From: a virus
Reading direction: 5' to 3' (one strand)
DNA length: 64,000 nucleotides
IMG/VR virus record: IMGVR_UViG_2920580016_000001
Location: 1,614 to 65,613 of that record
Part shown: in pieces, positions 12,490 through 60,645 of the stretch
Numbering within the stretch: position 1 is the first letter of the stretch
Layout: the number at the start of each line of letters is the position of its first letter
The notes under the pieces: generated by a model
What the model saw: only the letters and a program-made list of their open reading frames with translations
The model's database searches: none
What the model was told of the DNA's origin: nothing
Position numbers and translations under genes: made by a program

Positions 12490-12554
12490 CCCGACCGCCC
12501 CTCAACTCAAGATCGAAAATGTGTTGGCGGGTAAGTTGGCGGAACCGCCAACGA

Positions 12555-13258
12555 TTACCGGCGACGGGAAGCCCGGTCGTCGCCCGGGTCGAGCGCGCGA
12601 GCGATCCGCGAGTCACACACGAGCAGCCCCGCGATCCTCGTGCGCAGCCACCGCCACGACCGGCCCCGCAGCGCCGACGACTGGTCGAGGTCGATCCCGA
12701 ACACCTGGTGCAGGTCGGCCTCGACCAGCTCCCACCGGCTCAGCAGGTCGAGCCAGGACACGGACGCCCCGCCGGTCAGGCTGAGCCCGTCGTCCGGGTC
12801 GTACCAGTCGCGGAGCCCCGTGACCGGGTCGATCTCGCCGCCGCTGCCCTCGCCCGGCGAGCCTTCCGATTCGGGGCCTCCGCTTCCCCCGCGCCGGCCT
12901 CCCAGTGGCGGCGGGCGGCGTCGATCCCGGCCGCGACCCACAGCAGCACCGTTTCGCCGACGTGCTGGATGACGGGCCAGTCCAGGCGGTCGGCGAACAG
13001 CTCGTCCCAGACGGGGCCGAGCAGCCTCTGGTAGAGGTCGCTGTCCTTGCTCTCGTTGGTGAGCACGGTCTCGGCCAGCTCGTTCAGGTTCGTGGTGTCC
13101 ACGTCCTGCCCGGCCTCGACGGCGATCCCGGCGTGCATGAGCCGCTGCACCAGCAGGCCCACCTCCGCGTCCGGAGGTGGGATCACGTACGTCTTGCCCT
13201 TGATGGGCAGCCGCAGGTTGGGGTCGAAGAACTCGTCCAGGTCGCGGAATCCGGTCAC
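12555..13258 (-). CDS. Tail assembly chaperone, long (-1 frameshifted) form
   Basis: The downstream frame (WELVEADLHQVFGIDL...WRWLRTRIAGLL) is entered by a -1 shift at GGGGGAA. Confidence 0.8.
12776..13258 (-). CDS. Tail assembly chaperone, short form
   Basis: Between the major tail gene and the TMP; LPIKGKTYVIPPP and NRKARR motifs. Confidence 0.82.
   Translation of the reverse strand: MTGFRDLDEFFDPNLRLPIKGKTYVIPPPDAEVGLLVQRLMHAGIAVEAGQDVDTTNLNELAETVLTNESKDSDLYQRLLGPVWDELFADRLDWPVIQHVGETVLLWVAAGIDAARRHWEAGAGEAEAPNRKARRARAAAARSTRSRGSATGTTRTTGSA
12884..12890 (-). other. Programmed -1 ribosomal frameshift slippery site GGGGGAA
   Basis: The 0 frame reads GCG GGG GAA; a -1 shift gives GGA AGC GGA and joins the 12555 frame. 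Confidence 0.8.
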
Positions 13259-13734
13259 GGCGCCACCAGCGGGTTGTCGATCTCGACGTCCTCACCGGAG
13301 CCGAGCAATGTGAAAGAGAACGGTTCGAGGTCGGTCTTCTCACCGCCGACCGTGAACTCGTTGACCTGGCACGTGCCCTGGTACGCCTCGTCCGAGCCGT
13401 CACGCCGGTACCAGCGCACCTCGATGAACGCCTCGTCCCCGACCTTGCGGGCGGCCTGGCGGATGTACTCCTGGCCGGCGTCGGGCACGAACGTCGCGCC
13501 GGTGTTCTTCTTCCGCTTGCCCTCGGCCTCGATCTTCCACTTCCGCTCAGTGATCATGTCGCGGCCGTAGCCCGACTCGTCATCGAAGTCGCCATCATCT
13601 TCCACGTTGTCGTCGGTGGTCTTCTCCCACTTGGACAGGCCCCGGACACGCGTCCACGCGGACGTGGGTGCGCCGATCCCGGCCGTGTTGACGTCCATGC
13701 ACCAGTGCTTGGCGAGCATGCTCACCAGAGCCAT
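13255..13734 (-). CDS. Major tail (tube) protein
   Basis: 159 aa; AAGGAG RBS; DAGQE, EAYQG and FSFTLLGSG motifs; canonical position. Confidence 0.85.
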   Translation of the reverse strand: MALVSMLAKHWCMDVNTAGIGAPTSAWTRVRGLSKWEKTTDDNVEDDGDFDDESGYGRDMITERKWKIEAEGKRKKNTGATFVPDAGQEYIRQAARKVGDEAFIEVRWYRRDGSDEAYQGTCQVNEFTVGGEKTDLEPFSFTLLGSGEDVEIDNPLVAP

Positions 13735-13805
13735 GATCGTTCTCCTTGTCGTGCGCACGGGAACCCCGGCCGCGCGGGGGCCGCGAAATGGAAAGAGGAG
13801 CGGGG

Positions 13806-14267
13806 CTACTCGTCGTCCCGCTGGGGGGTGGGCCAGTGCACCATCAGCTCGTAGGAGTCGGCCCGCTCCCACCGGCCGGAGGAGTCGCGGCCGGGCGGCG
13901 CCACCACCGTCCGCCGCGCCAGCAGCACCAGCACCCCGGACGGGAGCCGCGTCTCGGTCAGGCCGTGCAGCACGGCGAAGATGGCATCGGCGTAATCGCC
14001 GACGTCACGCGGGTCACCCTTCGCCCGCATGCGAAGCTGCACAAGCACGGTCGAGTCGCCGCTGTCGAGCTCGTCGCCGCCGGTCCCGTACACCGCCAGG
14101 CTGATGGCGGTGTCCGGTGTGGTGGGCAGGCCGCCGATCGACAACGCGAGCTGCGTCGGCGTGTACTTGCCGACCGGCGACCACACGCCGACCCCGCGCG
14201 AGGCGAGGAGCTGCGCCAGCCCGTCCAGCAGCGCTCGCGAGAACTGGCCCGGCATCGGCGTGGTCAT
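13806..14267 (-). CDS. Tail terminator / 'minor capsid' protein
   Basis: Position before the major tail gene; LPTTPD, VQLRMR and GRDSSGRWERADSY motifs. Confidence 0.75.
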   Translation of the reverse strand: MTTPMPGQFSRALLDGLAQLLASRGVGVWSPVGKYTPTQLALSIGGLPTTPDTAISLAVYGTGGDELDSGDSTVLVQLRMRAKGDPRDVGDYADAIFAVLHGLTETRLPSGVLVLLARRTVVAPPGRDSSGRWERADSYELMVHWPTPQRDDE

Positions 14268-14638
14268 CCGCCGAGCGCCTTCCGCACCGCCTTGGCCAGC
14301 ATCGCCCGCACCACCGCGGCCTCCTCGTACAGGGTGGTCTCCAGATACTTCGGCTCGCCCTTGAGCGGGTGCTCCCAGTCGAGCTGTTCGTGCTGGGCGA
14401 CCGCGTACGGCTGATCGAACGAGATGATGCCCTCCAGGTTCGACCGGTCCACCACGGCGCTGCCGGACCTTTCCAGGTCGCCGGTCTGCCACGGCACCTT
14501 GGGCTCGGTCATGGTCAGCACGTGTTCGGCGGCCTGCTGGAGCCCGGTCTCGATCGCCCGCCGCGCCCTGCCTTCCAGCTCGTCGGGGTTGACGTGCAGA
14601 TCCACGCGCACGTCCACGTCGATCGCGCGGTCCGTCAT
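14264..14638 (-). CDS. Neck / tail completion protein (HK97 gp10-like)
   Basis: VPWQTGDLERS, PYAVAQHE and KYLE motifs. Confidence 0.78.
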   Translation of the reverse strand: MTDRAIDVDVRVDLHVNPDELEGRARRAIETGLQQAAEHVLTMTEPKVPWQTGDLERSGSAVVDRSNLEGIISFDQPYAVAQHEQLDWEHPLKGEPKYLETTLYEEAAVVRAMLAKAVRKALGG

Positions 14639-14958: not shown

Positions 14959-14965
14959 GACCGCC

Positions 14966-15361: not shown

Positions 15362-15370
15362 CCCGGCCTC

Positions 15371-15712: not shown

Positions 15713-16049
15713 CGCTGCCCTCCTCGTCCTCGTCGTTGTCGGCGTTCTCGCCGAACTCTTCGATCAGCGCGTCCTTGCGCAGGGCGCGGGCGTCGGACTC
15801 GTTCATGCCGCGGGCGACGGCGTAGGCGATCCACGCGTCCTTCTTGGCGCTCTCTGGCGGCCGGACCCCCGCCGTCGCCGCTGCCACGACATCGACCAGC
15901 GGCGGCGGCGGAACGGCGGGCGAAGCGGGAGCGTCGGCACGGTCCGGGCCAACCTCGGTGGCCGACCAGTTCGGCAGCATGTCCAGGCACGCGTCCCGCT
16001 CGGGGAAGTCCACGACGTGGCCGGTGTTGGCGTTCCGGTATCGCCACAT
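15699..16049 (-). CDS. Small head-region protein with a C-terminal helical domain (P.ESAKKDAWIAYA)
   Basis: Coupled to the capsid stop; acidic tail. Confidence 0.6.
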   Translation of the reverse strand: MWRYRNANTGHVVDFPERDACLDMLPNWSATEVGPDRADAPASPAVPPPPLVDVVAAATAGVRPPESAKKDAWIAYAVARGMNESDARALRKDALIEEFGENADNDEDEEGSDGQD

Positions 16050-17002
16050 CACGGCGCCTGCACCCCGTGGATCTTCACTGCGCGGTCCGGGTCGAGCGTC
16101 TTGACTCCGTACAAGGTGTCGATGCTGACCACATCCTGCTTTTTGGCCTGGTCGTAGCCCATGACCACCCTGAGCGCGAACCCCTTGTACGACTCGACGT
16201 GCGCGTTCGCGGCGCCCTGCGGCAGAACCAAGGGCCTGGTCACGAGGGCGAACGCCGTCCTGTGGAACGCGACGCCGATCTCCGTGTTGGGCTGGCCGGA
16301 CGTCGGCGTGGTCGCCGGGCCCTTGATGTTCTGCGTCTGGTAACCGTCGTGCCCGAAGATCCTGCGACCCAGGTTCGCCTCACGCAGGCCCTCGGTGTCG
16401 CCCCTGTGGTCGCTCTGGTGGAACAGCGGGTCGCCGAGCCACTGCGCCTCGATCTCCGGCCCGACCACCACGTACCGATCCGTGGGCGGCACGTTCCTCT
16501 GGTTGAGCACCCTGCGCGCGTCGATGACGACGCGCGGGTTGTCCCAGTTCCACTCGTTGGTGCCGGTGACGGGGCCGCCGACGCCGGTCACCGTGGTCCC
16601 GGCCGTGCCCACGCGCTGGAGGACGTCGGCCCGCAGCGACAGGATGTCGCGGTCGATCCGCTGCGCGATGGCCTCCACCGCCGGAGCGAGGAGCTGGGCG
16701 TTGAAGTCAACGATGTCCAACGTCAGCTCCTCGCTGGTCACAGCGAAGGAGACGTCCACGAACTTGTCGAGGCTGATCGGAATGCTGCCCTCGGTCGCGT
16801 TCTGGATGACGATGCCCGTGGTCCGGTTGAACTGGGTCGCCTCGAAGACGGCGGGCTTGCGGATCGTGATGGTGTCGCCGATGCGGTTGACGAACTCCTC
16901 CTCATAGTCCCTGTGAACCAGTTGGCTCATGACCGTGGTCTCGTAGAGGTTCGCCAGCGCCTGACGAGCGATGATGCTGGGGGTCAGAAACGTGTTCGGC
17001 AT
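16049..17002 (-). CDS. Major capsid protein (HK97 fold, P22 coat-like family)
   Basis: NTFLTP.IIA..AL; GDTITIRKP; C-terminal SIDTLYGVKTLDP. Confidence 0.92.
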   Translation of the reverse strand: MPNTFLTPSIIARQALANLYETTVMSQLVHRDYEEEFVNRIGDTITIRKPAVFEATQFNRTTGIVIQNATEGSIPISLDKFVDVSFAVTSEELTLDIVDFNAQLLAPAVEAIAQRIDRDILSLRADVLQRVGTAGTTVTGVGGPVTGTNEWNWDNPRVVIDARRVLNQRNVPPTDRYVVVGPEIEAQWLGDPLFHQSDHRGDTEGLREANLGRRIFGHDGYQTQNIKGPATTPTSGQPNTEIGVAFHRTAFALVTRPLVLPQGAANAHVESYKGFALRVVMGYDQAKKQDVVSIDTLYGVKTLDPDRAVKIHGVQAP

Positions 17003-17050
17003 CGGGCCTTACTCCTGACGTGGGCCCGTTGGCGACCGCCAACGAGAGTG

Positions 17051-17923
17051 CTAGGACGACTTCTCCTTCGCCGCCGCGCGGCGCTTGCGGAAGTCATCGA
17101 CGTTGGGCTCGGAGCCGGTAGGACGCGCGCCAGGCCCGCCGGCGAACTCCCCTCCGCTCCGCGTGGGCGGCCCGGACATCGACGCCGCCTTGTACTTTGG
17201 GTTTTCATCGATCGCGAGCTGGATGACCTCGCCGAGCTTCGTCCCGAAGTCGTCGCTGTCGGGGTCCAGGTCGCGGATCTTCTTCACGAACGACCGCGAG
17301 TCGAGGAGCGCGTCGGGGTCGGCGCCCATCTTGAGCCCCTGCCGGTGCACGGCCAGCTCGACGAGCGCGCGGCGGTGCCGCTCCCGCTCCTGGTCGCGCT
17401 CCTTCGCGGTCTGGTCCTTCTCAGAGGTCAGCTTCTCGATCACCTGCTCGGGGGTGAGCTTCTCGGCCTGCTCGTCGGCCACCAGCCCCAGAGCTTTGCC
17501 GATCTGCTGGGCGAACTCCTCCCGCACCTGCGCAGTGACTTCCTCCGGAGACGGCCCCTTCTTGGCCGCGGCCTCCTCCGCTTCCTTCTGCGCCTGCTTG
17601 AGCATGGCGCGGTAGTCGCCCGCCTCCTTCCGCGCATCACGGACGATCTTCTGCGCCCAGTCGGGCAACTGATCGACCTTGATGGCGTCGGGGTTGACCT
17701 TCTGCTCGGCCTGCCGAGCTGCGGCGAGCGGGTCAGGCTGGCCAGGCTGCTGGCCGGGCGGCGTCACCCCGGCCTCCGGACCGTCGCCCTGCGGCGTGTC
17801 CTGCGGCTGGCCTTCGCCTCCCCCGTCACCTTCAGCGCCTCCGGCGATGAGCCGGATCGGCTGGCCGTTCCTGCGGTGGCCGATGATCGCGCCAGGCGTC
17901 GTCGGCAGCATGTGATCGAACAC
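17051..17923 (-). CDS. Capsid scaffolding protein
   Basis: GTG start with GGAGG RBS; LPDWAQK...RKEAGDYR coiled coil; ALLDSRSF; directly upstream of the capsid gene. Confidence 0.8.
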   Translation of the reverse strand: MFDHMLPTTPGAIIGHRRNGQPIRLIAGGAEGDGGGEGQPQDTPQGDGPEAGVTPPGQQPGQPDPLAAARQAEQKVNPDAIKVDQLPDWAQKIVRDARKEAGDYRAMLKQAQKEAEEAAAKKGPSPEEVTAQVREEFAQQIGKALGLVADEQAEKLTPEQVIEKLTSEKDQTAKERDQERERHRRALVELAVHRQGLKMGADPDALLDSRSFVKKIRDLDPDSDDFGTKLGEVIQLAIDENPKYKAASMSGPPTRSGGEFAGGPGARPTGSEPNVDDFRKRRAAAKEKSS

Positions 17924-23959: not shown

Positions 23960-25255
23960 CTAGTAGGCGGGGACGGGTTCGAGCAACCGCATCCACACCG
24001 CCTGCGTGGTGTGCAGGCCGTAGCGGAGGGCGTCCACGCTGTGGTCATGCTCCTTGACCGGCGCGTCCTCGCCTCGCTCCGCCTTCTTCTCGTCCCAGGC
24101 GTAGCCGACAATCTCGTCCAGCAGGGCGCGGCAGGAGGCATGCACGCGCAGATGGTCGGCGGCGATCAGGTTGGAGACGGTGCGGATACCGTCGAGCACC
24201 GAGTTGTCTCCCTGCTGGGGCCGGAACCCGTCGTGGTGCAGCTGCATGATGAACGAGGCGGCGGACGGGTCAACGATCAGCCAGTCCGGCCGCACGCCGT
24301 GCGTCCCCGGCCCGTACGTGTCGGGGATGTCGTCCAGCCACTCGGCCAGCCGCATCGAGTATTCGGCGTCGGTGAGCTGGCGGCGCTGGACGCGGGAGTC
24401 CCACCGCCATTCGTTGGCGACGTAGATGCGACGCTGCCCCTCCAGGTCGGGAACCGACACGCCGATGAGGACGGCGTCGAAAGGGTTCGCCGTGCCATAG
24501 TCCACGCCCACGGCGAGCCACTTCTCCATCAGCGGCAACTCGTCCACGACGTGGCGGTCTTCGTCGAACATGTCGAAGATGGCGCCCTCGGCCATCACCC
24601 ACTGGCCCAGGACGAACCGTTTGTACCAGAGGCCGGTGTACTCCTTCTTCAGCGCGGCCACGTACGCCGGGTCCAGGGCGTGGTTGTCGTCCAGGCGGAA
24701 GTGCCAGCTCCGGAGGTCGAGTTCGCCGGCCCGGTCGAGGAAGTCGCGTTTCAGCCAATGGGAGGGGCTGTCGGGGTTGGTGGAGCCGAACAGCTTTGCC
24801 CCCGGCACGCTCAACCGGCTGAGCAGCATGTCCCAGAACGGCCGCTCCAGCAGCGTGATCTCGTCCACGTACACGCCTGCGCACGTCATGCCGCGCAGCC
24901 GGGTTTCGGCACGGGCATCAGCGCACGAGATGATCTCAACCTTGCGGCCCAGGATCGTCGCGGTCGGCGCACCGCGGGTGTAGGAGATGCGTGCGGCCAG
25001 CGGCCCGGTGGTGGCGGGGTCCATCAGCGGATCGAACACATTCCGCGAGATTGTGTCCGCCGTCTTGCCCACGATGACGAGGGAGCCGCCACGGGGCGCG
25101 TTGGCGACGAACGCCAGCCACCTGATCAAGGAGGCGATCGTCTTCCCACTGCGGATGGCCCCCTGCCAGATGTTCAGGCGCGCGCTCGACTCGGCGATCG
25201 AGCGTTCCTGCTTGGGTGACAACCGGACCGCCAGGCCCAGTCCGCCGCCGGTCAT
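23960..25255 (-). CDS. terL: Terminase large subunit (PBSX-type)
   Basis: Walker A GAIRSGKT; Walker B YVDE; STNPD coupling motif; nuclease VDYG, VDPSA, DHSVDALRY. Confidence 0.95.
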   Translation of the reverse strand: MTGGGLGLAVRLSPKQERSIAESSARLNIWQGAIRSGKTIASLIRWLAFVANAPRGGSLVIVGKTADTISRNVFDPLMDPATTGPLAARISYTRGAPTATILGRKVEIISCADARAETRLRGMTCAGVYVDEITLLERPFWDMLLSRLSVPGAKLFGSTNPDSPSHWLKRDFLDRAGELDLRSWHFRLDDNHALDPAYVAALKKEYTGLWYKRFVLGQWVMAEGAIFDMFDEDRHVVDELPLMEKWLAVGVDYGTANPFDAVLIGVSVPDLEGQRRIYVANEWRWDSRVQRRQLTDAEYSMRLAEWLDDIPDTYGPGTHGVRPDWLIVDPSAASFIMQLHHDGFRPQQGDNSVLDGIRTVSNLIAADHLRVHASCRALLDEIVGYAWDEKKAERGEDAPVKEHDHSVDALRYGLHTTQAVWMRLLEPVPAY

Positions 25256-25746
25256 GCTTCGCCTCCGGCGTCGTCGTAGATGACCTCGCCCGTGACGACG
25301 TCGACCTCCGTGATGGCGTCCATGTCGGGGTCCGGCACCTGGTAGCGCTGCTGAAGCTGAGCCAGCATGGTGCCGAGCAGCGACGCCATGTCGTGGTCGG
25401 GGTGGCCGTTGCGGTTGATCTGGTCCAGGCCGAGCAGCGACGCCCGCTTGTTGACGATCTTCAAGCAGGTTTCCGCCGCCTGCACCTCACCCTTCAGCAC
25501 CTTCGGCCACAGCGCGGCCATCATCCGGTCCAGGCGGCCGATCTCCAGATGCAGCAGATGCTCGGCCGCCATACCCTCCGCCTTGGCGGCCCGCTTCAAC
25601 GCCGCGGTGATGTCCGCGCTCGCGGCCTGCGGGCTGTTGTAGCCCAGCCGCTCGGCGATCAGCGTCGGGGACACTCCGGCGATCCGCATCTGGAGCGCCT
25701 GAGTGCGCCGCTGGGCAAGCTCCAGCTGCCGCTGCTTGTCGGCCAT
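25252..25746 (-). CDS. Terminase small subunit (HTH)
   Basis: N-terminal HTH (GVSPTLIAERLGY); R..LLGLD; coupled to TerL. Confidence 0.8.
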   Translation of the reverse strand: MADKQRQLELAQRRTQALQMRIAGVSPTLIAERLGYNSPQAASADITAALKRAAKAEGMAAEHLLHLEIGRLDRMMAALWPKVLKGEVQAAETCLKIVNKRASLLGLDQINRNGHPDHDMASLLGTMLAQLQQRYQVPDPDMDAITEVDVVTGEVIYDDAGGEA

Positions 25747-25791
25747 CGCCCCGGACTCATCCCCTCTGCTGTTGTCGGTTCCGCCAACGAG

Positions 25792-27900: not shown

Positions 27901-29001
27901 TCAGCGCCGGGTCCCTGCCCCGGCCGCAGCGGGGATGTACTCGAAGCTGACCAGCCCTAGCCGGCGCGGGTCGAGCGTGTCCTTGTGCTGGTTCCGCCGC
28001 TTCGAGCTGGTGTGGAGCTTGGTGGCGCGGGCCTGCCGCTGCCACCGCGGCGACCGGTCCCGGTAGGAGATCAGCGCCGGATGCGACGACACGGACCGGT
28101 AGCGGAAACCCTGATCGGCGAGATGCTGCGCCACCCACTCCGACATGCGAGCGCCGATCGACAGGCCCTGAAAGTCCGGCAGCACCACCAGCCGGTGCTC
28201 CATCTTCATGTTCCGCACGATCGGGTGCTGGAAATGCCGGTACGCAAGGAACGCCACCGGCTGGCCGTCGATGCACCCAGCGAAGCAATGCGCCGTGTTG
28301 CTGATCTCGGCGCTCAGATAGTGATGGTGGCGAAATACCGTCCAGAGCGACCGGTCAGCAGCGTGGATGTCGAGCCGGAGCGTGGGCCGGGGTTGAACCT
28401 GCCTCCACGCGAACGAGCCCGCGGCGACGTCGTATACCCAGTCGGGCTGGAGCCAGTCGAGCACGTCGTAGTGGCACGTGACGGCGACGAGCTGCCGCCC
28501 GGAGCGGCGTACGGCTTTCGCCACCGCGTGAGAGGCGACCTTGGCGACCTGGCGATCCACGACGGACGTGAACTCGTCCACCACCACGAGCCCGTCATGC
28601 TCGGCCAGGGCGCGGGCCATCGACGCGCGGAACGCCTCCCCGTTCGACAGCGTCTTATACGGCCGGAGCCACGCGGGCGGGCTCGAGAGTCCCACCGCGG
28701 TCAGCAGGCCGACGATGTCCTTGATGGACATGCCCTTGGGGAAGTCATCCACGAGCGCCCGATCCCCCCACGAGTGTGCCTCGACGAGCCGGCCCGGCCA
28801 CAACGCGCGGGCGAGGGTGGTCTTCCCGGCGCCGGACGGGCCGACGAGCAGACCGACGTTCCACTTCCGGTCCTCGATGGGTAGGTGCGCCGACCAGGAG
28901 TTGGTCAGTTTCTCTTCCAGCGGCACGTCGAACATGCCCTGGAGCTGCAACACCCTGGCGGTGCGGCGTACGGGGGTGGCGAGGGTGATGTCCGCGCGCA
29001 A
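27901..29001 (-). CDS. ABC-type ATPase fused to a GNAT (Mom-like) acetyltransferase
   Basis: Walker A GPSGAGKTT; signature LSNGE; Walker B VVVDEFTS; H-loop VTCH; then HHYL and RLVVLPDFQG.SIG acetyl-CoA motif. TTG start with GGAGG. Confidence 0.88.
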   Translation of the reverse strand: MRADITLATPVRRTARVLQLQGMFDVPLEEKLTNSWSAHLPIEDRKWNVGLLVGPSGAGKTTLARALWPGRLVEAHSWGDRALVDDFPKGMSIKDIVGLLTAVGLSSPPAWLRPYKTLSNGEAFRASMARALAEHDGLVVVDEFTSVVDRQVAKVASHAVAKAVRRSGRQLVAVTCHYDVLDWLQPDWVYDVAAGSFAWRQVQPRPTLRLDIHAADRSLWTVFRHHHYLSAEISNTAHCFAGCIDGQPVAFLAYRHFQHPIVRNMKMEHRLVVLPDFQGLSIGARMSEWVAQHLADQGFRYRSVSSHPALISYRDRSPRWQRQARATKLHTSSKRRNQHKDTLDPRRLGLVSFEYIPAAAGAGTRR

Positions 29002-29113
29002 GAGTGCCTCCTACATCGGGGTCACGATCGCGTCACTCGGTCTCCACAGGGCAGGGGTCCGGCAGCATCATCAGGGCCATGGCCGAGAAGAACTCCGAGC
29101 GGTAGCCGGGATC

Positions 29114-31820: not shown

Positions 31821-31943
31821 CGCGAGCGACACTGGCCATCAGGCCAGGCCAGTTAGGCCGCGAGCGGCCACCATAATGAGCATTCCGCGCGGGCTGGCCG
31901 TTGGCGGAACCGCCAAGCACGCGAAGATCACTCCGGTTGCTGA

Positions 31944-34613: not shown

Positions 34614-34691
34614 GATCATCTCTTTCGCGAGGAGACTGATTCACTCGCGATCGTAGCCTTCGTTGGCGCTACCGCCAACGAAATGCCAAAC

Positions 34692-42900: not shown

Positions 42901-42946
42901 GCGCTCACCTCCCTAGTCGTTTGTGTGCGGAACCGCGAACGAGCTG

Positions 42947-43708
42947 TCATGCTCCTGCCTCCTCCGTCACCCGGTCCATCGCCTCCGCCTCCGACACGTG
43001 GTGGCCGCAGTTCTCGCACACGTAGTAGCCGGCCCGCGGCTGCCACTCCAGGCGCCGCAGCTCGCAGCCGGGGCAGCGCGCGACCGTCCGGCCGGGCTCG
43101 TCATCCACCAGGCGCCGCAGCCGCGACTCCCACGCGAGCGCCCACTCGACCACGCCGAGCTCCACGGTCTGCTCCGGGTCGTTCACCGCCGACACGACGG
43201 TCAGCCCCTCCAGCGCCAGCACCGCGTCCAGCTTGTCCACCAGCCACGACACCGACCGCGACCTCACTACACCCGACCGGCCGGCGGGCACCAGGTCCGC
43301 CAGCTCCAGCCGCTCCCCCACGTCCCTGCGCAGTCGGAGCAGTTCGCCCGTCAGCGTGTGCACGACGTCGCCTTCCCCCGACAAGCTGCCGTGCGGCCGA
43401 GTCCCGCGCACCCGAGACCACCGCGTTTGCGCCTTCACCACGCCGGGCCGCGCCGCCCACGCCGCCGCCAGTTCGTCCACCACCAGCAGCGCACGACGGC
43501 ACGTCTCCCGGCATCGTCCGCAGTGCAGCGGCTCCCCCGGCCGCCACTCCACGGTCGGCATGACGGGCTCCGGCGGCGGCTCCCCCTCGCCGCCCTCTGC
43601 CAGCCACTTATCGACCGCGTCCGCGTGCGCCTCCCGCTCACGCAAGAACGCCGCCCACGCCTCACGAGCCAGCCGGTTGCACGGCCCCACGCACACCCGA
43701 TCCGACAC
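42947..43708 (-). CDS. Multi-CxxC zinc-ribbon protein (possible late transcription regulator)
   Basis: CVGPC, CGRC, CPGC, CENC; GGAGG RBS. Confidence 0.7.
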   Translation of the reverse strand: MSDRVCVGPCNRLAREAWAAFLREREAHADAVDKWLAEGGEGEPPPEPVMPTVEWRPGEPLHCGRCRETCRRALLVVDELAAAWAARPGVVKAQTRWSRVRGTRPHGSLSGEGDVVHTLTGELLRLRRDVGERLELADLVPAGRSGVVRSRSVSWLVDKLDAVLALEGLTVVSAVNDPEQTVELGVVEWALAWESRLRRLVDDEPGRTVARCPGCELRRLEWQPRAGYYVCENCGHHVSEAEAMDRVTEEAGA

Positions 43709-43825: not shown

Positions 43826-44179
43826 CTACTCCAACGGACTCGTGTGCCGGAAGAGGGGAACTAAGACGACCGCGAGGATCATGAGTAGCAAGCAGATGCC
43901 GATCCCCGTGAAACTCCACACGTTGAACCACCGGAAACCGATCGCGAGGAACGCCCACACCTCGCCGACAAGGAATACGACGCCCACCCCCGTCGCGGTC
44001 CTGACCCAGAAGGTGAATTGGAGCCTTCCCTCCTCAGCCTGAGCTTCGTCCCCCTTCTTCTCCCACTTGCGGGCAGATCGTTGTGCCGCCTGCATCATGA
44101 ACCCGGCCTCTACCGCCAGAGCGATCAGCAGCGTCGGCAGAACCTGCGCGGCCGTGGTGTAGAACGCTTCTGAACCCAT
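43826..44179 (-). CDS. Small three-TM membrane protein (copy 2, paralogue of 41244..41594)
   Basis: MGSEAFYTTAAQVLPTLLIALAVE...IGFRWFNVW. Confidence 0.75.
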   Translation of the reverse strand: MGSEAFYTTAAQVLPTLLIALAVEAGFMMQAAQRSARKWEKKGDEAQAEEGRLQFTFWVRTATGVGVVFLVGEVWAFLAIGFRWFNVWSFTGIGICLLLMILAVVLVPLFRHTSPLE

Positions 44180-44362
44180 ACCAGGTGATCGCCTCCAAAC
44201 CGCAGGCCGTTCCACGCCCGCGAATCACACCCTCTCCTCGCTGACGATCAACGCCCTTCGACCACGACCCCGCATCGTCACGGCAAGATCAAAACCATTC
44301 GCGAAAAACAAGCGCGAGGTACCTCCGGCCGGCCGCCGGGTGGGGGGTACGGGGGCATGCGT

Positions 44363-45180: not shown

Positions 45181-45858
45181 CTACTTCTTGGGCGCGGGCT
45201 TGCCGGGCTTGGCGGGCTCCTCCGGCTGCTCCGGCGGGACGGGCAGTCCGGCGTTGGTGAACGCCTGCGCCAGCTCGGCGCGGGCGATGCCCTCATCGAT
45301 CCCGGCGAAGAACGCGAGCGCGGGGTCCTGCTTGAACTTGGCCAGCGCGGCGGCTGCGGTCACGACCTGCTTGATCCGCTTCGCCTTCTCCGCCGCGATG
45401 CGCTCGGCTTCCTTCTTCGCCGCTTCGGCGTGGATCTCGGCGAGCTTGGCCAGCGGGTCAGCGCTGCCGACCATGGCCTTGACCTCCGCCTGAGACAGGG
45501 CGTGCGTCGCGATCATGTGGTCGGCGGGGATGCCGTACGCCTCGCACGTGGCGGCGATGCGTGCGGCGGCTCCGGCGCGGTCGGGCATGCGGTACCACGC
45601 GGCGCGGTCCGCTTCGCTGACCTTGTCCATCGCGGCGTACTCGGTCGGGGTGGGGCCGTCGTAGAGGGTGCCTCCGGCCTGCCGGATGGCGATGATCTCG
45701 GCCAGCGTGGCGCGGGCGGCGGGCAGACGGTAGGCGTTGATCATCGGGTTGTTGCCGGTGTGCCCCTCAAGGGCCTTGTTGAGGTCGGTGAGGGCGTCAC
45801 GGACGGCGGCGCGGATCTCGTCGGTGATGGTGAACGGGGCGGTGTTGTTGCTGGTCAT
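45181..45858 (-). CDS. Alanine-rich helical hypothetical protein
   Basis: GAGAGGA RBS; strong GC3 bias. Confidence 0.7.
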   Translation of the reverse strand: MTSNNTAPFTITDEIRAAVRDALTDLNKALEGHTGNNPMINAYRLPAARATLAEIIAIRQAGGTLYDGPTPTEYAAMDKVSEADRAAWYRMPDRAGAAARIAATCEAYGIPADHMIATHALSQAEVKAMVGSADPLAKLAEIHAEAAKKEAERIAAEKAKRIKQVVTAAAALAKFKQDPALAFFAGIDEGIARAELAQAFTNAGLPVPPEQPEEPAKPGKPAPKK

Positions 45859-45883: not shown

Positions 45884-46621
45884 TTACTCGGTGGGGGTTT
45901 CGTTGTCGGAACCGCCAACGCGATCGACCAGGGTCTCTTCGGCCGCCTGGTCGGACTTGTGGCGGCGGTAGATCACGATGCACGCGACCGTGATCGTGAT
46001 CAGCATGGCTGCCAGGATGCCGCCGAGCCACGCGGGGATGTCGTCGCTGACGTGTGTTGCCGTGACGGGCGGCAGGCTGGGGCCGCTCGCGAGGCTGGCC
46101 GTGGGAATGGGCGACATGGCCCGCGTGGGCGTGGGCGTCCGTGACGCGATGCGCGGCGTCGGGAACGCCATCGTGTCCGCCGTGCGTGCCGGGGGTGGCA
46201 CAGTCCCCGTGAGCGGCGCGGGCGCGGTCGTGGTGACTGTGGTTGCCGGACCGGTCGCCGTGGCGGTTGCCGTGGTGGTGCGCGTCGTGGTGGCGCGCAC
46301 GGTGGCGGTCTCCGTCTCCGTCGCGGTCACGGTGCGCGTGCTCCGCACCGTGGCGGTCTCCGTCGTGGTGGCGGTGGTGGTCACGGTCGGCGGGGTGGTG
46401 GTGACCGTGGCCGTGGCCGTGGTGGTCGCCGTGGTGGTCACGGAGACCGTGACGGGGATGCAGATCACGGGCGGGTCCTGGATCGGACAGCCCGTGATCG
46501 TCGGGTCGGCCACGACGGCACGGGGCGCGGCGTGGCCTGCTGGTGTGGCGATCACGGCAGCGGCGAGTGCGGCGGCTGCTGCCGCCGTTCCCGCTGCCGT
46601 GATCGCTCGTGTGATCTGCAT
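45884..46621 (-). CDS. Thr-rich surface protein (signal peptide, Thr/Ala stalk, C-terminal TM plus basic stop-transfer)
   Basis: AHA-A-type signal; long (T/A/V)T tract; WLGGILAAMLITITVACIVIYRRHK. Confidence 0.7.
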   Translation of the reverse strand: MQITRAITAAGTAAAAAALAAAVIATPAGHAAPRAVVADPTITGCPIQDPPVICIPVTVSVTTTATTTATATVTTTPPTVTTTATTTETATVRSTRTVTATETETATVRATTTRTTTATATATGPATTVTTTAPAPLTGTVPPPARTADTMAFPTPRIASRTPTPTRAMSPIPTASLASGPSLPPVTATHVSDDIPAWLGGILAAMLITITVACIVIYRRHKSDQAAEETLVDRVGGSDNETPTE

Positions 46622-47119: not shown

Positions 47120-47902
47120 TCAGGGTTTGGCGATGCGGTCGGCGGCGCAGGCTCGGCACGGTTCGGCCATGAACGGGTGGATGCCGCACATGCGGCCGAC
47201 GCCGCGGTAGCCGGCGGGCTCGTCCGGCAGGTAGGCGTGTGGGTCTCGGCGTAGGGCGCGTTGGACGTACCGGCCGGGGTTTTTCACGAGGGTGCGGGCT
47301 CTGCTGAGGATGAGGCGCCGTACGTGGGCGGCGTGCTCGGGGGTGATGTCTGTGGTGGTGAGTGGGGCGAGTTCGCGGCGGATCATCTCGTCCAGTTCGG
47401 AAAAATCTTGTCCGTCAATCCGTCCTTGATCGCCTGCATACGGTCCGTCAGATGAGTGATGAGAGAGCGTCAGTTGGGATGGGATGGGAGTGGGATGGGT
47501 TGGGGGGGCGTCTCCAGACGCGTCTCGCGACGCATCTTGAGACGCGTCTCGCTGTGCCTCGCGCGCTTCCTTCTGAGACGCCAGCCACCGCTCCTGACGT
47601 GCCTTTTTGGCCTCGCGACCCTCACGAACCTTGATCGCTGACGGCTGGTATTCGAGGTAGTCGTGAATCTGCCAACCGTCATTGGTTTTAGACCACAGAC
47701 CAGCGTTCACCAGCTCATCGGCGTACCGTCGCGGCGACGAAACGTCACTCACGTACATCAGCTCACGCGTCCCGATCACGCCATCGGTGAGGTTCGCGTT
47801 GCACCAGCACAACGCGCTCACGTACAGGCGGAACGCCCGATCCGACAGCGGCCGGACCTTCCGGTTGACCGGGAACTGGTCATCGACACGTACCCACGGC
47901 AT
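47120..47902 (-). CDS. Phage replication initiator (RepA/O-like)
   Basis: MPWVRVDD.F..N.K, LTDG.I, L..AGLW, W.IHDYLEYQPS; internal DNA repeats. Confidence 0.85.
   Translation of the reverse strand: MPWVRVDDQFPVNRKVRPLSDRAFRLYVSALCWCNANLTDGVIGTRELMYVSDVSSPRRYADELVNAGLWSKTNDGWQIHDYLEYQPSAIKVREGREAKKARQERWLASQKEAREAQRDASQDASRDASGDAPPTHPTPIPSQLTLSHHSSDGPYAGDQGRIDGQDFSELDEMIRRELAPLTTTDITPEHAAHVRRLILSRARTLVKNPGRYVQRALRRDPHAYLPDEPAGYRGVGRMCGIHPFMAEPCRACAADRIAKP
47473..47550. repeat. Putative origin: four 12-bp-period GACGCGTCT-type iterons plus a G-rich TGGGA tract inside rep
   Basis: GC(G/A)TCT at 47508, 47520, 47532 and 47544; GTTGGGATGGGATGGGAGTGGGATGGGTTGGGGGGG adjacent. Confidence 0.65.
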
Positions 47903-47929
47903 GCAAGCCGCCCTTCCCTTATGCGCGAA

Positions 47930-47969
47930 GTGGGGGCTCGTCCACCGAGGGAAGTGGTCGAGCCCCCAC
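47930..47969 (-). terminator. Hairpin upstream of rep
   Basis: GTGGGGGCTCG...CGAGCCCCCAC stem abutting the palindrome copy at 47970. Confidence 0.6.
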
Positions 47970-47993
47970 CGTAAGCGGAACCGCCAACGAACG

Positions 47994-50858: not shown

Positions 50859-51106
50859 GCTCTCTCCCCGAGGTGGGTGCGGACGGACGCGAGCGCGGCC
50901 ATCTCCCGCTCAGGTGGCGGATCGCACATGTCGAGGTACGCGGCGGCGATTTCGACGACGACGTGCAAGTCTTCTTCGGGCACGGTGGTCTGGCCGATGT
51001 TGTGCTCGACCAGGGCGCGGTATACCTTGGCAGCGACCTCGGCGTACGTCATGCCTGCGTTCATCGCGCGGCCGATGACCTCGGCGAGCGTCAGAGCGCT
51101 GATCAT
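50855..51106 (-). CDS. Small hypothetical protein
   Basis: ATGA-coupled. Confidence 0.55.
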   Translation of the reverse strand: MISALTLAEVIGRAMNAGMTYAEVAAKVYRALVEHNIGQTTVPEEDLHVVVEIAAAYLDMCDPPPEREMAALASVRTHLGERA

Positions 51107-51921
51107 GCTGGGCACCCCATCTCGAACAGCGGCAACGTCTTCACGGTCTCTACGGACTTGCGACGACGCCCAGCAGGTCGAGGCGAGCGGCGACGAATCA
51201 GGCCCGCCTCAGCTCGAAGCCGCAGCGTCCTGAGCGTGAGCGTGCGCTTCACGCCGTTCACGGTCTCGGTGAGGATCGACACGTCCTTGCCGTGCTCCTC
51301 CCGGAACCGCTGCTCCTCGTACTCGGCCAGGGCGTACCGCTCCGGGAACTCCCGCAGGGTGAGCAGCCACTGAGCTTGGCCCGCGCGGACGCAGCTGCCC
51401 TGGCAGTTGTTGTGACTGAAGCCGAGCTCGTACATGCGAGCGATGGCGATGCCGAGCTTGACGCACTCGGCCTTCATCCGCTCCTTGCTCCAGGTCTTGT
51501 CGTCCATCAGCGGGAACTCGACCCGCCACGGCGCCCATCCCTTGACGACGCCGGGCTTGCGGCGTTCCTCGGCCGCGTCGAGGCCGACGTACAGAATGGT
51601 GTCGGCCGGGTCGCAGTTCTTCTCCAGCCACTTCCGGCAGGGCTTCTGCTTGAGTTCCTTCGTGCATGGGGCGAGCCGGGAGTTGCCCAGGAAGTGCTGG
51701 TCGAAGTACACCTGGAACGGGTTCCGGCCGTCGCACACGATGGTCGGGGTGATGTCGAGGTGTTCGCTGGCCTGGCCGAGGAATCGGTACAGGTCGGGAT
51801 GCTCCCACAGGGTGTCGGCGAACAGGAGGACCACGTTCTCCTTGCCGTACTGCTGGACGACGAGGTTGGCTGCGTGGAACGAGCCGAGTCCGCCGGACAT
51901 CTGGATCACGTGCCGGGTCAT
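51103..51921 (-). CDS. PAPS-reductase / adenine-nucleotide alpha-hydrolase superfamily protein
   Basis: SGG.GS PP-loop, FADT..E..D.YRFL, C...LK..P, Y..GF.HNNC.G.CVRAG. Confidence 0.82.
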   Translation of the reverse strand: MTRHVIQMSGGLGSFHAANLVVQQYGKENVVLLFADTLWEHPDLYRFLGQASEHLDITPTIVCDGRNPFQVYFDQHFLGNSRLAPCTKELKQKPCRKWLEKNCDPADTILYVGLDAAEERRKPGVVKGWAPWRVEFPLMDDKTWSKERMKAECVKLGIAIARMYELGFSHNNCQGSCVRAGQAQWLLTLREFPERYALAEYEEQRFREEHGKDVSILTETVNGVKRTLTLRTLRLRAEAGLIRRRSPRPAGRRRKSVETVKTLPLFEMGCPA

Positions 51922-52316
51922 GACGGCCGGCCCGCGTGCCAGCCGCAATCCCCGGCAGAGCACGGGCGGCACTTCCAGCCGCTCGGAGTCCGTACCCAGC
52001 CAGACGTGGCTGCGGTCTCCTCGGCCTCAGTCTGCGACTTGCAGTGGTAGACCATGCACTCGCCCGGGTCGTCGCAGCCGTCGCCGCAGCAGCCGCACAC
52101 CACGTAGTAGCACGGCCTGTCGAGCTGCTGGACCACCGACGGCGGCGTCCAGTCGGTGTCTCTCGGGTCGTCCGGTTCGAGAGCCGCTTTCCGGGACGGG
52201 TGGTGGTACTGCTCGCCTGTCTCGCCGGGCCTGATCCAGCACGGGGCGGGATGCGTGAGGACCTGCGAGGCGATGACCGTGGTCAAGTCGGGACTGCCGA
52301 ACGTCGGAGTGCTCAT
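51918..52316 (-). CDS. Cys-rich (Zn-finger-like) protein
   Basis: CGCCG, H, W...CRPC. Confidence 0.6.
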   Translation of the reverse strand: MSTPTFGSPDLTTVIASQVLTHPAPCWIRPGETGEQYHHPSRKAALEPDDPRDTDWTPPSVVQQLDRPCYYVVCGCCGDGCDDPGECMVYHCKSQTEAEETAATSGWVRTPSGWKCRPCSAGDCGWHAGRPS

Positions 52317-54417: not shown

Positions 54418-54633
54418 CTACTCCTGGAAGGTGTGGCGGTGGTGGATGTTCGGCTGGTTGGCCAGCCGCCGGGCGGCGTCGAGGTCGGCGACGGTGAGGT
54501 CGCGGCCCTCGATGACCGCCAGCGCGCGGGTGCGGTCCGGGTTCCAGACAGCGACTCGCGGCCTGTCCGGCATGCGCGGTTGTTGGCGGTTCCGCCAACG
54601 ACGCTCGTCGGCGACGTCGGATGGCGTCTTCAC
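54418..54633 (-). CDS. Small hypothetical protein
   Basis: GTGA-coupled to the RuvC-like gene (alternative ATG at 54573). Confidence 0.5.
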   Translation of the reverse strand: MKTPSDVADERRWRNRQQPRMPDRPRVAVWNPDRTRALAVIEGRDLTVADLDAARRLANQPNIHHRHTFQE

Positions 54634-58740: not shown

Positions 58741-59668
58741 CGGGGTCTCCTTCCAGGGCGGGAAGCTTGATCTTGTGGAGGTTCCGGACCGCCTGCACGT
58801 GCGGGTGCGGTCCTCGGTTACGGCGGCGGGTGGCGATGACCTGGCCGTTCAGGTACGCCTTCTTCGCTCGCCCCATCTCGTCGGCGATGGCCGCCTTGGC
58901 GCCCAGCAGCTCCTCCTCGGCCGCGGCGGCGGCGAGCTCGGCCTTGACGTAGCGGACGCCGACCGGGTCCGAGACGCTGACGGACAGGTCCTCGTCGATC
59001 TCCGGGTGTGCAGCGCGGAGCGTCCGGTAGGTGTGCGGGTGGTGGTCGAGCGGCGGCATGATGCCCCACAGCAGGTTCGTGCGGAACTCGGCCGCCTGCT
59101 CAACCAGCGCGCGGGCCGCCTCGGGGTCGTACTCAACGACGTACTCGGCGAACTCGAGGCCCGGTCCGATCATCGGCACGTACCAGCGCTCCAGGCCGAA
59201 GATGTGCATGTACCACATGACCTGCACCCAGTACGGGAGCGGGATCTCGTCGGTGCCGGGCTCGCCCCACTCGTCGCGGTAGCGGGCCGACTTGTACTCG
59301 CCGCCCGCCACGAGCCGGCCGCGGTGGTAGCAGAGCGCGTCGGGGTTGGTGAGCATCCACCCTCTGGCGTACGTGCCGGGGTGGTCCACGATCTCCCACT
59401 CCGGGTGGAGCTTGCGGAAGTACGCGGCGAGGGACGGTTCGAGGAGGTGGCCACGTTCGGCGTCCTCACCGGCCTCCTCGCGCTCAACCTGCCCGGTCAG
59501 GACCATGGCGAGCCCGTACGGGGACATGAACGTGTTGGCTCCTAGCGCGGTGGCCACGTCGGTGCCGCCCATGCGCGGTCCGTCGTCGGCCATGCGGGTG
59601 GCGAGCCATTCGGGGCTGCCCGGCTCGAACCGGCCGAGCAGCTCCGGCGTTGCGGTGATGGTGGTCAT
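58730..59668 (-). CDS. YqaJ-like (lambda-exonuclease family) recombination nuclease
   Basis: GSPEWL..R, GG.DVA..LG...F.SP, G..LEP, .PD, E.K, Y..QV.WYM. Confidence 0.9.
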   Translation of the reverse strand: MTTITATPELLGRFEPGSPEWLATRMADDGPRMGGTDVATALGANTFMSPYGLAMVLTGQVEREEAGEDAERGHLLEPSLAAYFRKLHPEWEIVDHPGTYARGWMLTNPDALCYHRGRLVAGGEYKSARYRDEWGEPGTDEIPLPYWVQVMWYMHIFGLERWYVPMIGPGLEFAEYVVEYDPEAARALVEQAAEFRTNLLWGIMPPLDHHPHTYRTLRAAHPEIDEDLSVSVSDPVGVRYVKAELAAAAAEEELLGAKAAIADEMGRAKKAYLNGQVIATRRRNRGPHPHVQAVRNLHKIKLPALEGDPDGR

Positions 59669-60144
59669 TAGAACGGCGGCTCGTCCGTGAAGTCCGGGTG
59701 CTGCGGCTTGGGCTCTGGCGGCGGCCAGCCCTTGCGAGCGATGAGCCGGAGGTCGGGGGCGTGCGCGAGCAGGACCTGCACGTCCTCGTAGCAGTAGGCG
59801 TCGCCGCCGTACACGCCGTGGGGGCAGCGGTCGTTCTCGTTGACCAGCCGGATGCCGACCACCACACCCTCTTCGTCGTTGATCGCAATGGCGAACCAGC
59901 GGTGTCCGTCGCCGTCCCACACATCCCCGACCTCGATCGGCCAGTTCGAGGGCGGGACGGGCGTGACCGTCACGCCGACGTGGTCGAGCGGGATGTGTAG
60001 AACGGTGCTGGTCTGGGAGCCGTTCGGGCCGACGAGCTTCACGGAGATGTCGGTGGTGCCGCCTCGCTCGGCAATGGTGCCGACGACAAGGGCGTTCTCC
60101 AGGGTGATGTTGTAGCGGCGGCCGGTGTCGTAGTAGGTGCTCAT
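59668..60144 (-). CDS. Hypothetical protein (ends DEPPF)
   Basis: WP...GDVW.......WFA; acidic SSB-like tail. Confidence 0.65.
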   Translation of the reverse strand: MSTYYDTGRRYNITLENALVVGTIAERGGTTDISVKLVGPNGSQTSTVLHIPLDHVGVTVTPVPPSNWPIEVGDVWDGDGHRWFAIAINDEEGVVVGIRLVNENDRCPHGVYGGDAYCYEDVQVLLAHAPDLRLIARKGWPPPEPKPQHPDFTDEPPF

Positions 60145-60149
60145 CGCGG

Positions 60150-60332
60150 TCAGGCCCCCTGCTGCTCGGTGAGGACGGCGCGGGCCTCGTTGACGTACCT
60201 GGCGGCGGCCTGAGCTCCGACCTGGTCGATGAGCATGTCGAGCGCGGTGGTGGCGTGGGGGCAGTCGAATGGGCTGCTGGCGATGACGAGTGCGAGGTCT
60301 GCGATGCGCTCGTCGGCGCGGCTGGGCGTCAT
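60150..60332 (-). CDS. Small protein, first gene of the early leftward operon
   Basis: GGGAGAG RBS; follows the palindrome at 60351. Confidence 0.55.
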   Translation of the reverse strand: MTPSRADERIADLALVIASSPFDCPHATTALDMLIDQVGAQAAARYVNEARAVLTEQQGA

Positions 60333-60645
60333 GCGTCTCTCCCTGAGAATCGTTGGCGGTTCCGCCAACGGGTTGGGTGCGGATGTGGCGTTTCCGCTTG
60401 GCGGTGGTGGTGGTCGCGAGACTTGTTGATCTTGCTTGAGCATGTCTCGCGACACCTCCAGCGTACGCCTTTGAGACGCGACTGTCACGCTCTGGTCGCG
60501 TCGATCGCGCCGCTCATTTGCCAGTGCATCAAGATCAACCAGTCGCCGTCAGTGATCTTGACAGGAGACGTGCAGACGCGACCGACGCCCACCCGTTTGA
60601 TACGCTCGCGTCGATCCCGACCGCCACAAGGGGGATACCGCAACC

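Follow-up and report, generated by a model that had tools for sequence, protein, structure and literature searches.

A dispersed family of class-specific palindromes in a ~102-kb Streptomyces-type prophage and its relatives: candidate operators of a phage-encoded regulator

The window analysed here is a 64,000-nucleotide stretch of viral DNA (positions 1,614 to 65,613 of IMG/VR record IMGVR_UViG_2920580016_000001), and coordinates without a contig name refer to it. The window makes up nearly all of contig C36 of G000, the host genome, which measures 12.4 Mb at ~70% G+C, and it belongs to a prophage of ~102 kb that the assembly has divided over contigs C36, C15 (275.7-293 kb) and C19 (198.3-214.9 kb). 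Dispersed along this prophage is a family of palindromic sites with the consensus TCGTTGGCGG-WW-CCGCCAACGA, which are strongly enriched over the rest of the host genome, lie mostly at gene boundaries, are conserved in syntenic relatives, are symmetric in sequence, and have counterparts in other elements that differ only in three bases per half-site. The sites are read here as probable operators of a phage-encoded regulator.

The prophage and its relatives

Genes were called with a third-position G+C rule and then scanned against Pfam and PHROGs, and the predicted gene content is that of a siphovirus-type temperate phage with genes mostly on the minus strand (Table 1). Four elements are syntenic with C36 and the two further contig segments and carry them on one molecule: an IMG/VR provirus of 91.6 kb (G001) and three stand-alone contigs from genomes of the same genus, namely G202:C39 (102.8 kb), G358:C37 (108.4 kb) and G177:C9 (106.9 kb). 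No protein of C36 matches C15, and the cluster of sites on C15 (278.6-292 kb) was first read as an independent second element; this was rejected because G001 and G202 have both parts on one molecule. Host DNA lies beyond the prophage on both C15 and C19, and the prophage therefore appears to be integrated. Genes for DDE transposases are present at C15:295.5-297.7 kb and are the probable cause of the assembly break. The three stand-alone relatives (103-108 kb) are circularly permuted in gene order and, as stand-alone contigs, may therefore be plasmid-prophages.

Table 1. Palindromic sites and annotated genes of the window, with the tandem ribbon-helix-helix gene of contig C15
Feature	Position	Strand	Sequence	Context or basis of the label	Orthologous sites in the four relatives
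Extra half-site	12523-12530		GTTGGCGG	Adjoins the site at 12534-12553; found by direct reading	
Site	12534-12553		core GTTGGCGGAACCGCCAAC	Precedes the 744-aa tail gene by 46 nt	4/4
Site	17027-17044		CGTTGGCGACCGCCAACG, without 2 central bp	Between 17051-17923 and the capsid gene, 25 nt before the latter	4, all with normal spacing
Site	25770-25789		one half altered, GTTGTCGG	25 nt upstream of 25252-25746	
Site	31899-31918		…CCGCCAAG	Just past the stop of the PadR-like gene	1/4
Site	34661-34680			Divergent gap between 34356-34619 (minus) and the integrase gene (plus)	1/4
Site	36308-36327		…CCGCCATT	Between the stop of 35775-36269 and, 91 nt away, the start of 36417-36785 (both plus)	2/4
Site	41187-41206			52 nt upstream of the excisionase-like gene	4/4
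Site	42923-42940		degenerate GTGTGCGGAACCGCGAAC, 3 mismatches	Between the Zn-ribbon and XRE genes	
Site	45901-45920		GTTGTCGG half	Precedes 45181-45858 (minus) by 44 nt; overlaps the preceding frame at its 3' end	4/4
Site	47970-47989		conserved weak half CGTAAGCGG	Upstream of the replication initiator gene; a strong stem-loop follows	
Site	54581-54600			Inside the 5' part of frame 54418-54633, just past the stop of the RuvC-like gene; not intergenic	4/4, with coding flanks
Site	60351-60370		perfect palindrome	Divergent gap, 20 nt upstream of 60150-60332 and 277 nt upstream of 60646-61161	4/4
Holin and CHAP lysin genes	884-2112				
Tail gene, 744 aa	10255-12489	minus		Tape measure by size and position only	
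Capsid gene	16049-17002			P22-coat-type	
Portal gene				Pfam/PHROG scan	
TerL gene	23960-25255				
Gene just before TerL	25252-25746			TerS by position only	
ParB-like gene	30327-30950			PHROG ParB-like matches	
Small PadR-like gene	31944-32150				
Tyrosine integrase gene	34774-35757	plus			
Excisionase-like helix-turn-helix gene	40723-41136	minus			
XRE gene	42619-42900				
Zn-ribbon gene	42947-43708				
Replication initiator gene	47120-47902	minus		PHROG	
WhiB, RuvC, RecT and YqaJ exonuclease genes	in the window			Pfam/PHROG scan	
First gene of the leftward early operon	60150-60332	minus			
Divergent gene, candidate binder	60646-61161	plus		Far end of the window	
LuxR gene	61177-62130				
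Single-chain tandem ribbon-helix-helix gene	C15:291648-292130	minus		Outside the window	

The site family and its specificity to the phage

A search of the window for the pattern GTTGGCGGWWCCGCCAAC at up to three mismatches returned 11 matches against 0.16 expected (100 dinucleotide-preserving shuffles, largest count 2). Ten of these belong to the 11 sites listed in the original prediction and the other is a degenerate extra at 42923 that was absent from that list; the pattern misses the listed site at 17027 because two central base pairs are absent there, and the window thus holds 12 sites. All 11 listed sites exist, with coordinates and sequences confirmed by the pattern search and by direct reading. 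Seven further sites of the same prophage lie on C15, and C19 contributes up to three candidate matches at ≤2 mismatches, of which at least one is chance-like. The palindrome spans 20-22 bp, and the centres of its half-sites lie about one helical turn apart. Sense-oriented base counts over 65 sites from five related elements give TCGTTGGCGG-(T/A)(A/T)-CCGCCAACGA with symmetric flanks TCG…CGA. No second dispersed palindrome family was found in the elements that carry this motif.

The comparison with the host chromosome that had been proposed as a check was carried out with GTTGGCG-N4-CGCCAAC. The pattern occurs without mismatch 8 times in the 102-kb prophage and once in the remaining 12,332 kb; the corresponding counts are 15 and 12 at ≤1 mismatch and 20 and 214 at ≤2 mismatches, so that site density is ~970-fold higher in the prophage at 0 mismatches and ~150-fold higher at ≤1. 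The sole exact host copy, at C2:147900, sits inside a repetitive coding-like stretch. In the genomes of the relatives the pattern is likewise concentrated on the phage contig, with 0-4 matches per genome to a reversed-pattern control, and genomes with only a distant relative of the phage stay at the control level (G394, 5 vs 3; G193, 9 vs 4). The motif is a phage feature and no host repeat. The description of the sites as a genome-wide family accordingly holds for the prophage, with C36, C15 and the C19 candidates, and not for the host genome.

Placement of the sites

Positions were examined for 96 sites at ≤2 mismatches in six stretches (C36, 10; C15, 7; G001, 18; G202, 23; G358, 18; G177, 20), a few of which are likely to be chance matches inside genes. 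A total of 84 of the 96 are not deep inside a called gene, compared with 29% of random positions (binomial p = 9e-33). Of the 65 sites that lie between co-directional genes, 26 begin 1-13 nt past the upstream stop codon, and 23 end no more than 30 nt (14-30 nt) from the next start; a typical site follows a stop by 1-13 nt and leaves 14-50 nt to the start codon that comes next. Sites are found in early, accessory and late modules alike and are mostly intergenic, as originally described; an exception is the site at 54582, which lies inside a coding frame (54418-54633) and there reads RRWRNRQ. Two of the gene names attached to sites in the original prediction are supported, the capsid gene beside 17027 and the replication initiator gene beside 47971, whereas the tape measure and the small terminase are labels of size or position (Table 1). 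The gene in the small-terminase position, 25252-25746, matches PHROG 645, labelled 'RNase E', at E = 3e-25, and that label is doubtful there.

A -35/-10 reading of the sites themselves was considered and rejected. It fits only the site at 34662, which reads TTGGCG-17 nt-TACGAT leftward and is the only one with a plausible promoter arrangement; by eye, the other printed sites lack TANNNT at the right distance. Within 5-25 nt downstream of about a dozen sites in the window and the relatives stands a distinct G+C-rich stem-loop, perfect over 10-14 bp, that resembles a terminator, for example TGGGGGCTCG…CGAGCCCCCA after the site at 47971 (about 47900-47968, minus strand). Among downstream 60-mers, 20/71 fold at ≤-25 kcal/mol compared with 22% of random 60-mers, an excess that is not significant, although the dozen or so cases are striking.

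Conservation in syntenic relatives and variation between classes

A site lies within 150 bp of 62 of the 68 orthologous positions that can be aligned in the four relatives, and in the alignments the palindrome stands as a conserved island amid diverged, indel-rich intergenic DNA. Departures from the consensus are conserved as well. The G5 substitution in one half of the site at 25771 recurs as GTTGTCGG in G001, G202 and G358 and as GTTGCCGG in G177. At 47971 the half-site GTAAGCGG is kept in G001, G202 and G358, and the G177 counterpart has a different degenerate half, 127 nt off the predicted position. The shortened site at 17027 may be a weakened or dead site.

Among 401 sampled genomes of the host's order, 26 have homologues of 60646-61161, the divergent gene at the far end of the window, and 20-40 kb (mostly 40 kb) was examined around 23 of these homologues, in 21 genomes. 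In 15 of the 23 regions there is a dispersed palindrome of the region's own, of the form CG-xxx-GCGG-NN-CCGC-xxx-CG, at 5-13 copies per 20-40 kb (20-27 kb in two). The class versions differ only in three bases per half-site: the half-site is CGTAAGCGG in G394, CGACAGCGG in G216, CGCmAGCGG in G193, G045, G253, G328 and G279, CGAATGCGG in G169 and G150, and (C/T)GATAGCGG in G214, G294, G364, G267, G192 and G141. Off-class counts are 0-7 and exceed 4 only where related CAGCGG-type patterns overlap. Elements in one host genus differ in the triplet, and the reader of the site must therefore be phage-encoded. No such palindrome family was found in the other eight stretches (G393, G355, G358b, G331, G156, G237, G170 and G339, the last with two copies). 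G393 and G355 instead carry three copies of GGGGAAGT-N4-ACTTCCCC in ~170 bp, ~13 kb from the helix-turn-helix (HTH) gene, and these may be origin iterons.

The site at 60352, between the early operon and 60646-61161, has a class-specific counterpart 229-913 bp upstream of the 60646-61161 homologue in 11 of the 13 listed elements of other classes; in G253 and G328 the nearest site is at or beyond the end of the homologue. The spacer from 60370 to 60646 is conserved in five elements well past the palindrome. It contains TGATCTTGACA, which is -35-like, an extended -10 sequence TGATACGCT ~60 nt before the ATG of 60646-61161, the inverted pair CTTGTTGATCTTG / CAAGATCAAC and the repeats GAGACGCGAC / GTCGCGTC. 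The sequence TGATCTTG from this spacer also occurs upstream of the homologous gene in other classes.

Candidate binding proteins

The protein encoded by 60646-61161 has 171 residues, with an N-terminal XRE/Cro-CI-type HTH domain (residues ~5-90) followed by long C-terminal helices. Its AlphaFold2 (AF2) model has a predicted local distance difference test score (pLDDT) of 85 and a five-helix N-domain. The top Foldseek matches are all XRE regulators, with weak E-values of 0.5-4; VIA-align superposes residues 5-90 on whole DNA-binding domains with Z 5.2-7.2 and a root-mean-square deviation of 2.0-3.6 Å over 61-78 aligned residues; and in the ESM Atlas the closest clusters bear the names HTH cro/C1 or XRE. 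Searches of Pfam returned no HTH_3- or HTH_31-type family even at E≤5, and NCBIfam and PHROGs also gave no match. The protein that had been proposed as the binder is thus an XRE-type HTH protein according to its model, a support that is at the level of the fold because the Z-values are middling for small helical domains.

The gene and the early operon diverge, and a site lies in between; this is a CI-like position. Identity of the N-domain to the G000 protein is 66-73% within the same-motif class and 34-41% across classes, whereas the C-terminal part is only 22-23% identical in three of the four same-motif relatives, as low as between classes, and 59% identical in G202. The HTH stretch differs by class and has a conserved WRR(I/R)E-x-G end. 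When identity was compared with class, the area under the curve (AUC) was 0.92 for the HTH N-domain, 0.79 for the protein's own C-terminal part and 0.85 for the second candidate described next.

The second candidate is a tandem ribbon-helix-helix (RHH) protein encoded on the C15 part of the prophage as a lone reverse-strand gene. Its AF2 model has strand 47-53 and helices 55-68 and 72-86, then strand 114-120 and helices 122-135 and 139-157, with pLDDT >90 over residues 50-155. The best Foldseek matches are chains E-G of the F-plasmid relaxosome (template-modelling score (TM) by target 0.57-0.69, E 0.008-0.16), and VirC2 is a weaker match (E 0.32, TM by target 0.38); these are single-chain RHH proteins. 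Pfam RHH_10 is matched at E = 0.006, below the Pfam cut-off, and some relatives or classes have four units.

Other regulators of the window are unlikely binders because they are not universal. The XRE protein 42619-42900 and the PadR-like protein 31944-32150 have no homologue in G001, the sole same-motif relative searched for them, the LuxR protein 61177-62130 is missing from G001, G358 and G177, WhiB was not found in G202, and the ParB-like protein 30327-30950 was not found with this query in G216 or G214 (genomes 99-100% complete). Among these unlikely binders are the XRE, PadR and WhiB proteins, which had been suggested for binding assays. The excisionase-like HTH protein 40723-41136 was also rejected as a determinant of specificity, its helix being almost invariant across classes.

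Proposed role of the sites

Taken together, the sites are probably double-stranded DNA operators for one phage-encoded, two-fold symmetric regulator acting by roadblocks. In a lysogen, a symmetric dimer, or two single-chain RHH monomers, would sit on each palindrome. RNA polymerase would be stopped where the early operon begins and again at many junctions within the early, accessory and late gene trains. The palindromes would then be roadblock or 'stoperator'-like operators and not promoter-overlapping ones, and stray transcription would be kept out of the replication, packaging, capsid, tail and lysis genes. At the internal junctions a bound protein could act only as an elongation block or together with neighbouring terminators. 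The original prediction of a silencing network for a dimeric protein finds agreement in the phage-specific, dispersed, palindromic and conserved layout, which suits a dimeric regulator, and silencing itself would follow if that regulator represses.

The likeliest reader of the sites is 60646-61161, on less than even odds. For this protein, dimerisation is suggested by the palindrome alone, and the conserved WRR(I/R)E end of the recognition helix may read the invariant GCGG while its variable start reads the triplet. The claim that 60646-61161 is the best candidate gains from its fold and from the tracking of class by its N-domain, and loses from the tandem RHH protein being equally universal. 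It is also possible, if rather doubtful, that the binder is some protein other than these two. A tentative extension of the proposal is that these ~100-kb elements form at least six immunity classes, in which one repressor family would read CG-xxx-GCGG and ~20 symmetric 'stoperators' would wall off nearly every cassette of genes.

Several observations weigh against repression by 60646-61161 through such roadblocks. No sigma-70-like promoter or terminator was found in scans of the two divergent regions 60100-60700 and 34500-34900. Most sites leave no room for a promoter, and a classical operator role therefore fits only the site at 34662; the claim that the sites lie at operon and gene starts stands for gene boundaries and falls for operon starts in the promoter sense. 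The stem-loops that follow about a dozen sites could mean that the sites cooperate with terminators. At the candidate's own gene, the nearest site is the one 277 nt from the start and does not overlap the likely promoter. The G000 protein has a 2-residue insertion and a different start of the recognition helix, yet its motif is the same as that of the relatives, and near-identical helices FS[DE]G.WRNIE go with two classes, CGCmAGCGG and CGAATGCGG. G393, G355 and G358b have both candidate proteins and only 2-3 ATA-type matches (≤2 mismatches) per 28-40 kb region, which is about background. The AUC comparison is confounded by shared ancestry, and a Zn-ribbon protein reaches 0.97 on a smaller set; it is too confounded to decide the binder. 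The proposed check on covariation of motif and repressor thus gave a mixed result, with an N-domain that tracks class and with counter-examples beside the effect of ancestry. Finally, no motif-bearing element lacks the RHH protein where the relevant region was covered, and a pair of class-specific sites, 200-320 bp apart, flanks the start of the RHH gene in the TTG, TAA, CmA, AAT and ATA classes, one upstream and the other inside the first ~150 nt of the frame.

The last two points belong to a rival explanation that is itself tentative, in which the sites would be the same repressive operators and their reader would be the tandem RHH protein, two copies per site. The RHH protein would then autoregulate through the bracketing pair, and 60646-61161 would use other local operators. 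Besides the universality of the protein and the site pair at its own start in five classes, the beta-alpha-alpha unit that occurs twice in the model, the RHH structural matches, the marginal RHH_10 match and the isolated reverse-strand gene are consistent with this explanation. The pattern of sequence divergence fits it less well: identity between G000 and G001, of the same class, is 45% and is lower than the 50% between G000 and G394, of different classes; the TTG and TAA classes share beta-strand 1, NTGTRLD, despite their different motifs; G192 has a diverged strand 1 and keeps the ATA-type motif; and the AUC for this protein is below that of the HTH N-domain.

Positive use of the sites in the lytic cycle, by an antiterminator, activator or genome-organising protein and not for silencing in the lysogen, is unlikely. 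The sites do precede the putative small-terminase gene, the capsid gene and the tape measure gene, and in G001 the holin gene; some stand shortly before stem-loops that resemble terminators, and the sequences are neutral between activation and repression. Against this, the 14-30 nt that separate 23/65 sites from the next start leave no room for an activator-dependent promoter downstream, and the same site precedes the early operon, across from a CI-like gene, in the classical position of a repressor site.

A further explanation is that the palindromes act in the transcript, as RNA hairpins that stabilise, process or terminate the message or couple translation, perhaps with an RNA-binding protein. 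The perfect copies would fold, with energies of -14 to -18.6 kcal/mol (z -2 to -3.6), into a stem of 8 bp closed by a 4-nt loop, the position right after stop codons and just before ribosome-binding sites would suit such a signal, and changes between classes keep the two halves complementary. The mismatches tell otherwise. Read on the sense strand, 70 non-Watson-Crick pairs comprise 13 of G·U type, 12 of A·C type, which are G·U only on the opposite strand, and 45 others, and there is thus no preference for G·U in the sense strand. Mismatches within a genome are one-sided and never compensated, and the degenerate sites that recur in relatives show no folding advantage over shuffles (z -0.63 at 25771, z +1.07 at 47971). 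A hairpin would not need the same sequence in ~20 unrelated contexts or symmetric flanks, sites occur also in divergent and possibly untranscribed gaps (34662, 60352), and the terminator-like hairpins are separate, longer stems beside the site. Because of the one-sided mismatches, the absence of a G·U strand bias, the conserved sites that do not fold, the symmetric flanks, the ~20 copies and the copies in divergent gaps, the data point to a double-stranded DNA site read by a two-fold symmetric, sequence-specific protein, and the RNA hairpin offered as an alternative in the original prediction is disfavoured as quite improbable.

The second alternative offered there, a partition or recombination site, fares worse. 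Dispersed palindromes are known as sites of KorB of RK2 and as centromere sites of N15, the ParB-like protein 30327-30950 has PHROG ParB-like matches, and the stand-alone relatives of 103-108 kb may be plasmid-prophages; the sites could on these grounds be centromere-like or KorB/ParB-type. This is very improbable given that a search with the ParB-like protein returned nothing from G216 and G214 despite their 9 and 10 class-specific sites per 40-kb region, that a six-frame translation of the prophage contains no deviant Walker-A (ParA-like) motif, and that 30327-30950 has no Pfam ParB match. A host repeat like the repetitive extragenic palindromes, or a site for a host transcription factor, is scarcely credible: the single exact copy elsewhere in the host falls in a repetitive coding-like stretch, and the idea fails on the density in the prophage, on the different triplets of related phages in the same genus and on the control-level counts of genomes lacking an element of the same class.

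Other features of the element

The accessory region encodes two pentapeptide-repeat proteins on the plus strand (28541-30292 and 39800-40714), the second of which has a long repeat with a period of 15 nt. Segments 41263-41629 and 43848-44214 are paralogous duplications, 71-78% identical, that take in two small genes of the minus strand (41244-41594 and 43826-44179). On the plus strand, inside an otherwise minus-strand region, 41962-42480 encodes a protein with a ricin-type beta-trefoil lectin domain. Possible DNA-modification genes encode a protein like 3'-phosphoadenosine 5'-phosphosulfate (PAPS) reductase in the window (51103-51972) and, on the C15 part, a C-5 cytosine methylase and a DpdA-family protein (at 285021-287033 and 288874-289860).

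Comparison with known systems

Megablast of two 24-kb segments of the window against the phage collection gave no match, and neither did tblastn of 60646-61161 against the phage and plasmid collections. The best matches of TerL are 54-57% identical and come from Streptomyces phages and 88-93-kb Streptomyces plasmids, and the capsid protein matches records from Rhodococcus, Prescottella and Nocardia at 48-52% identity. The 18-mers of the motif were in no paper of the literature searched, a body that excludes ~1.7 million articles in PubMed Central and most papers from subscription journals.

Of greater use is the class series CG-xxx-GCGG, which predicts groups of heteroimmune elements, offers candidate orthogonal operator-repressor pairs for actinomycete genetics and is a testable case of a repressor and its operators changing together. 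Should the elements indeed form at least six immunity classes, they would provide a ready-made orthogonal repressor-operator set for Streptomyces and a clean system of co-change with ~20 sites.

The analogy with phiC31 drawn in the original prediction is borne out at the level of layout. The phiC31 record contains at least 16 copies of CCTACTCACGTGAGTAGG, among them copies that follow the capsid and tape-measure genes and one that precedes the terminase gene, so that in both phages one conserved palindrome, in phiC31 the conserved inverted repeat (CIR), occupies short intergenic gaps of early and late regions, often right past a stop codon; the CIRs are reportedly bound by the phiC31 c repressor. 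The CIR sequence is, however, unrelated to the motif of the window, which has 0 matches in phiC31 at ≤3 mismatches. The c repressor (683 aa) has no tblastn match at E≤1e-3 in the whole genome and only fragments at E 0.68-4 in the prophage, and no counterpart of the conserved early-promoter motif of phiC31 was seen in this phage. The two also differ in phage type, with ~100 kb and a P22-type coat here and 41 kb in phiC31.

The stoperators of mycobacteriophage L5 and other cluster A phages are sites of the repressor gp71; those of L5 are asymmetric 13-mers oriented with transcription and reportedly halt RNA polymerase during elongation in the lysogen. The present sites resemble them in lying inside operons, in short intergenic spaces and without a promoter (two regions scanned), and differ in being two-fold palindromes with a matrix that is symmetric including the flanks and with no orientation bias. 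The C1 repressor of P1 binds operators that are asymmetric 17-mers, and KorB of RK2 is a ParB-family protein; like the C1 operators and the OB sites of KorB, the family described here would place one regulator at a dozen or more dispersed sites of a large extrachromosomal or temperate element, and unlike KorB, the ParB-like protein of this phage is not universal among the motif-bearing relatives.

Of the candidate readers, 60646-61161 resembles XRE/Cro-CI regulators (P22 c2, SinR, C-proteins, EspR, ClgR) in the superposition of residues 5-90 and in its CI-like divergent position, and is unlike them in having no LexA-like peptidase domain and in its long C-terminal helices, which have no assigned relative. 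The RHH candidate shares with F-plasmid TraY, Ti-plasmid VirC2 and Arc/Mnt-type proteins two beta-alpha-alpha units per chain at marginal sequence similarity, and would, if it is the reader, be a phage repressor. To our knowledge, silencing of a whole prophage by dispersed repressor sites is known from few phages, namely phiC31, L5 with its relatives, and P1, and the sites described here would bring control of this familiar sort to a large group of temperate elements of which the searches turned up no description.

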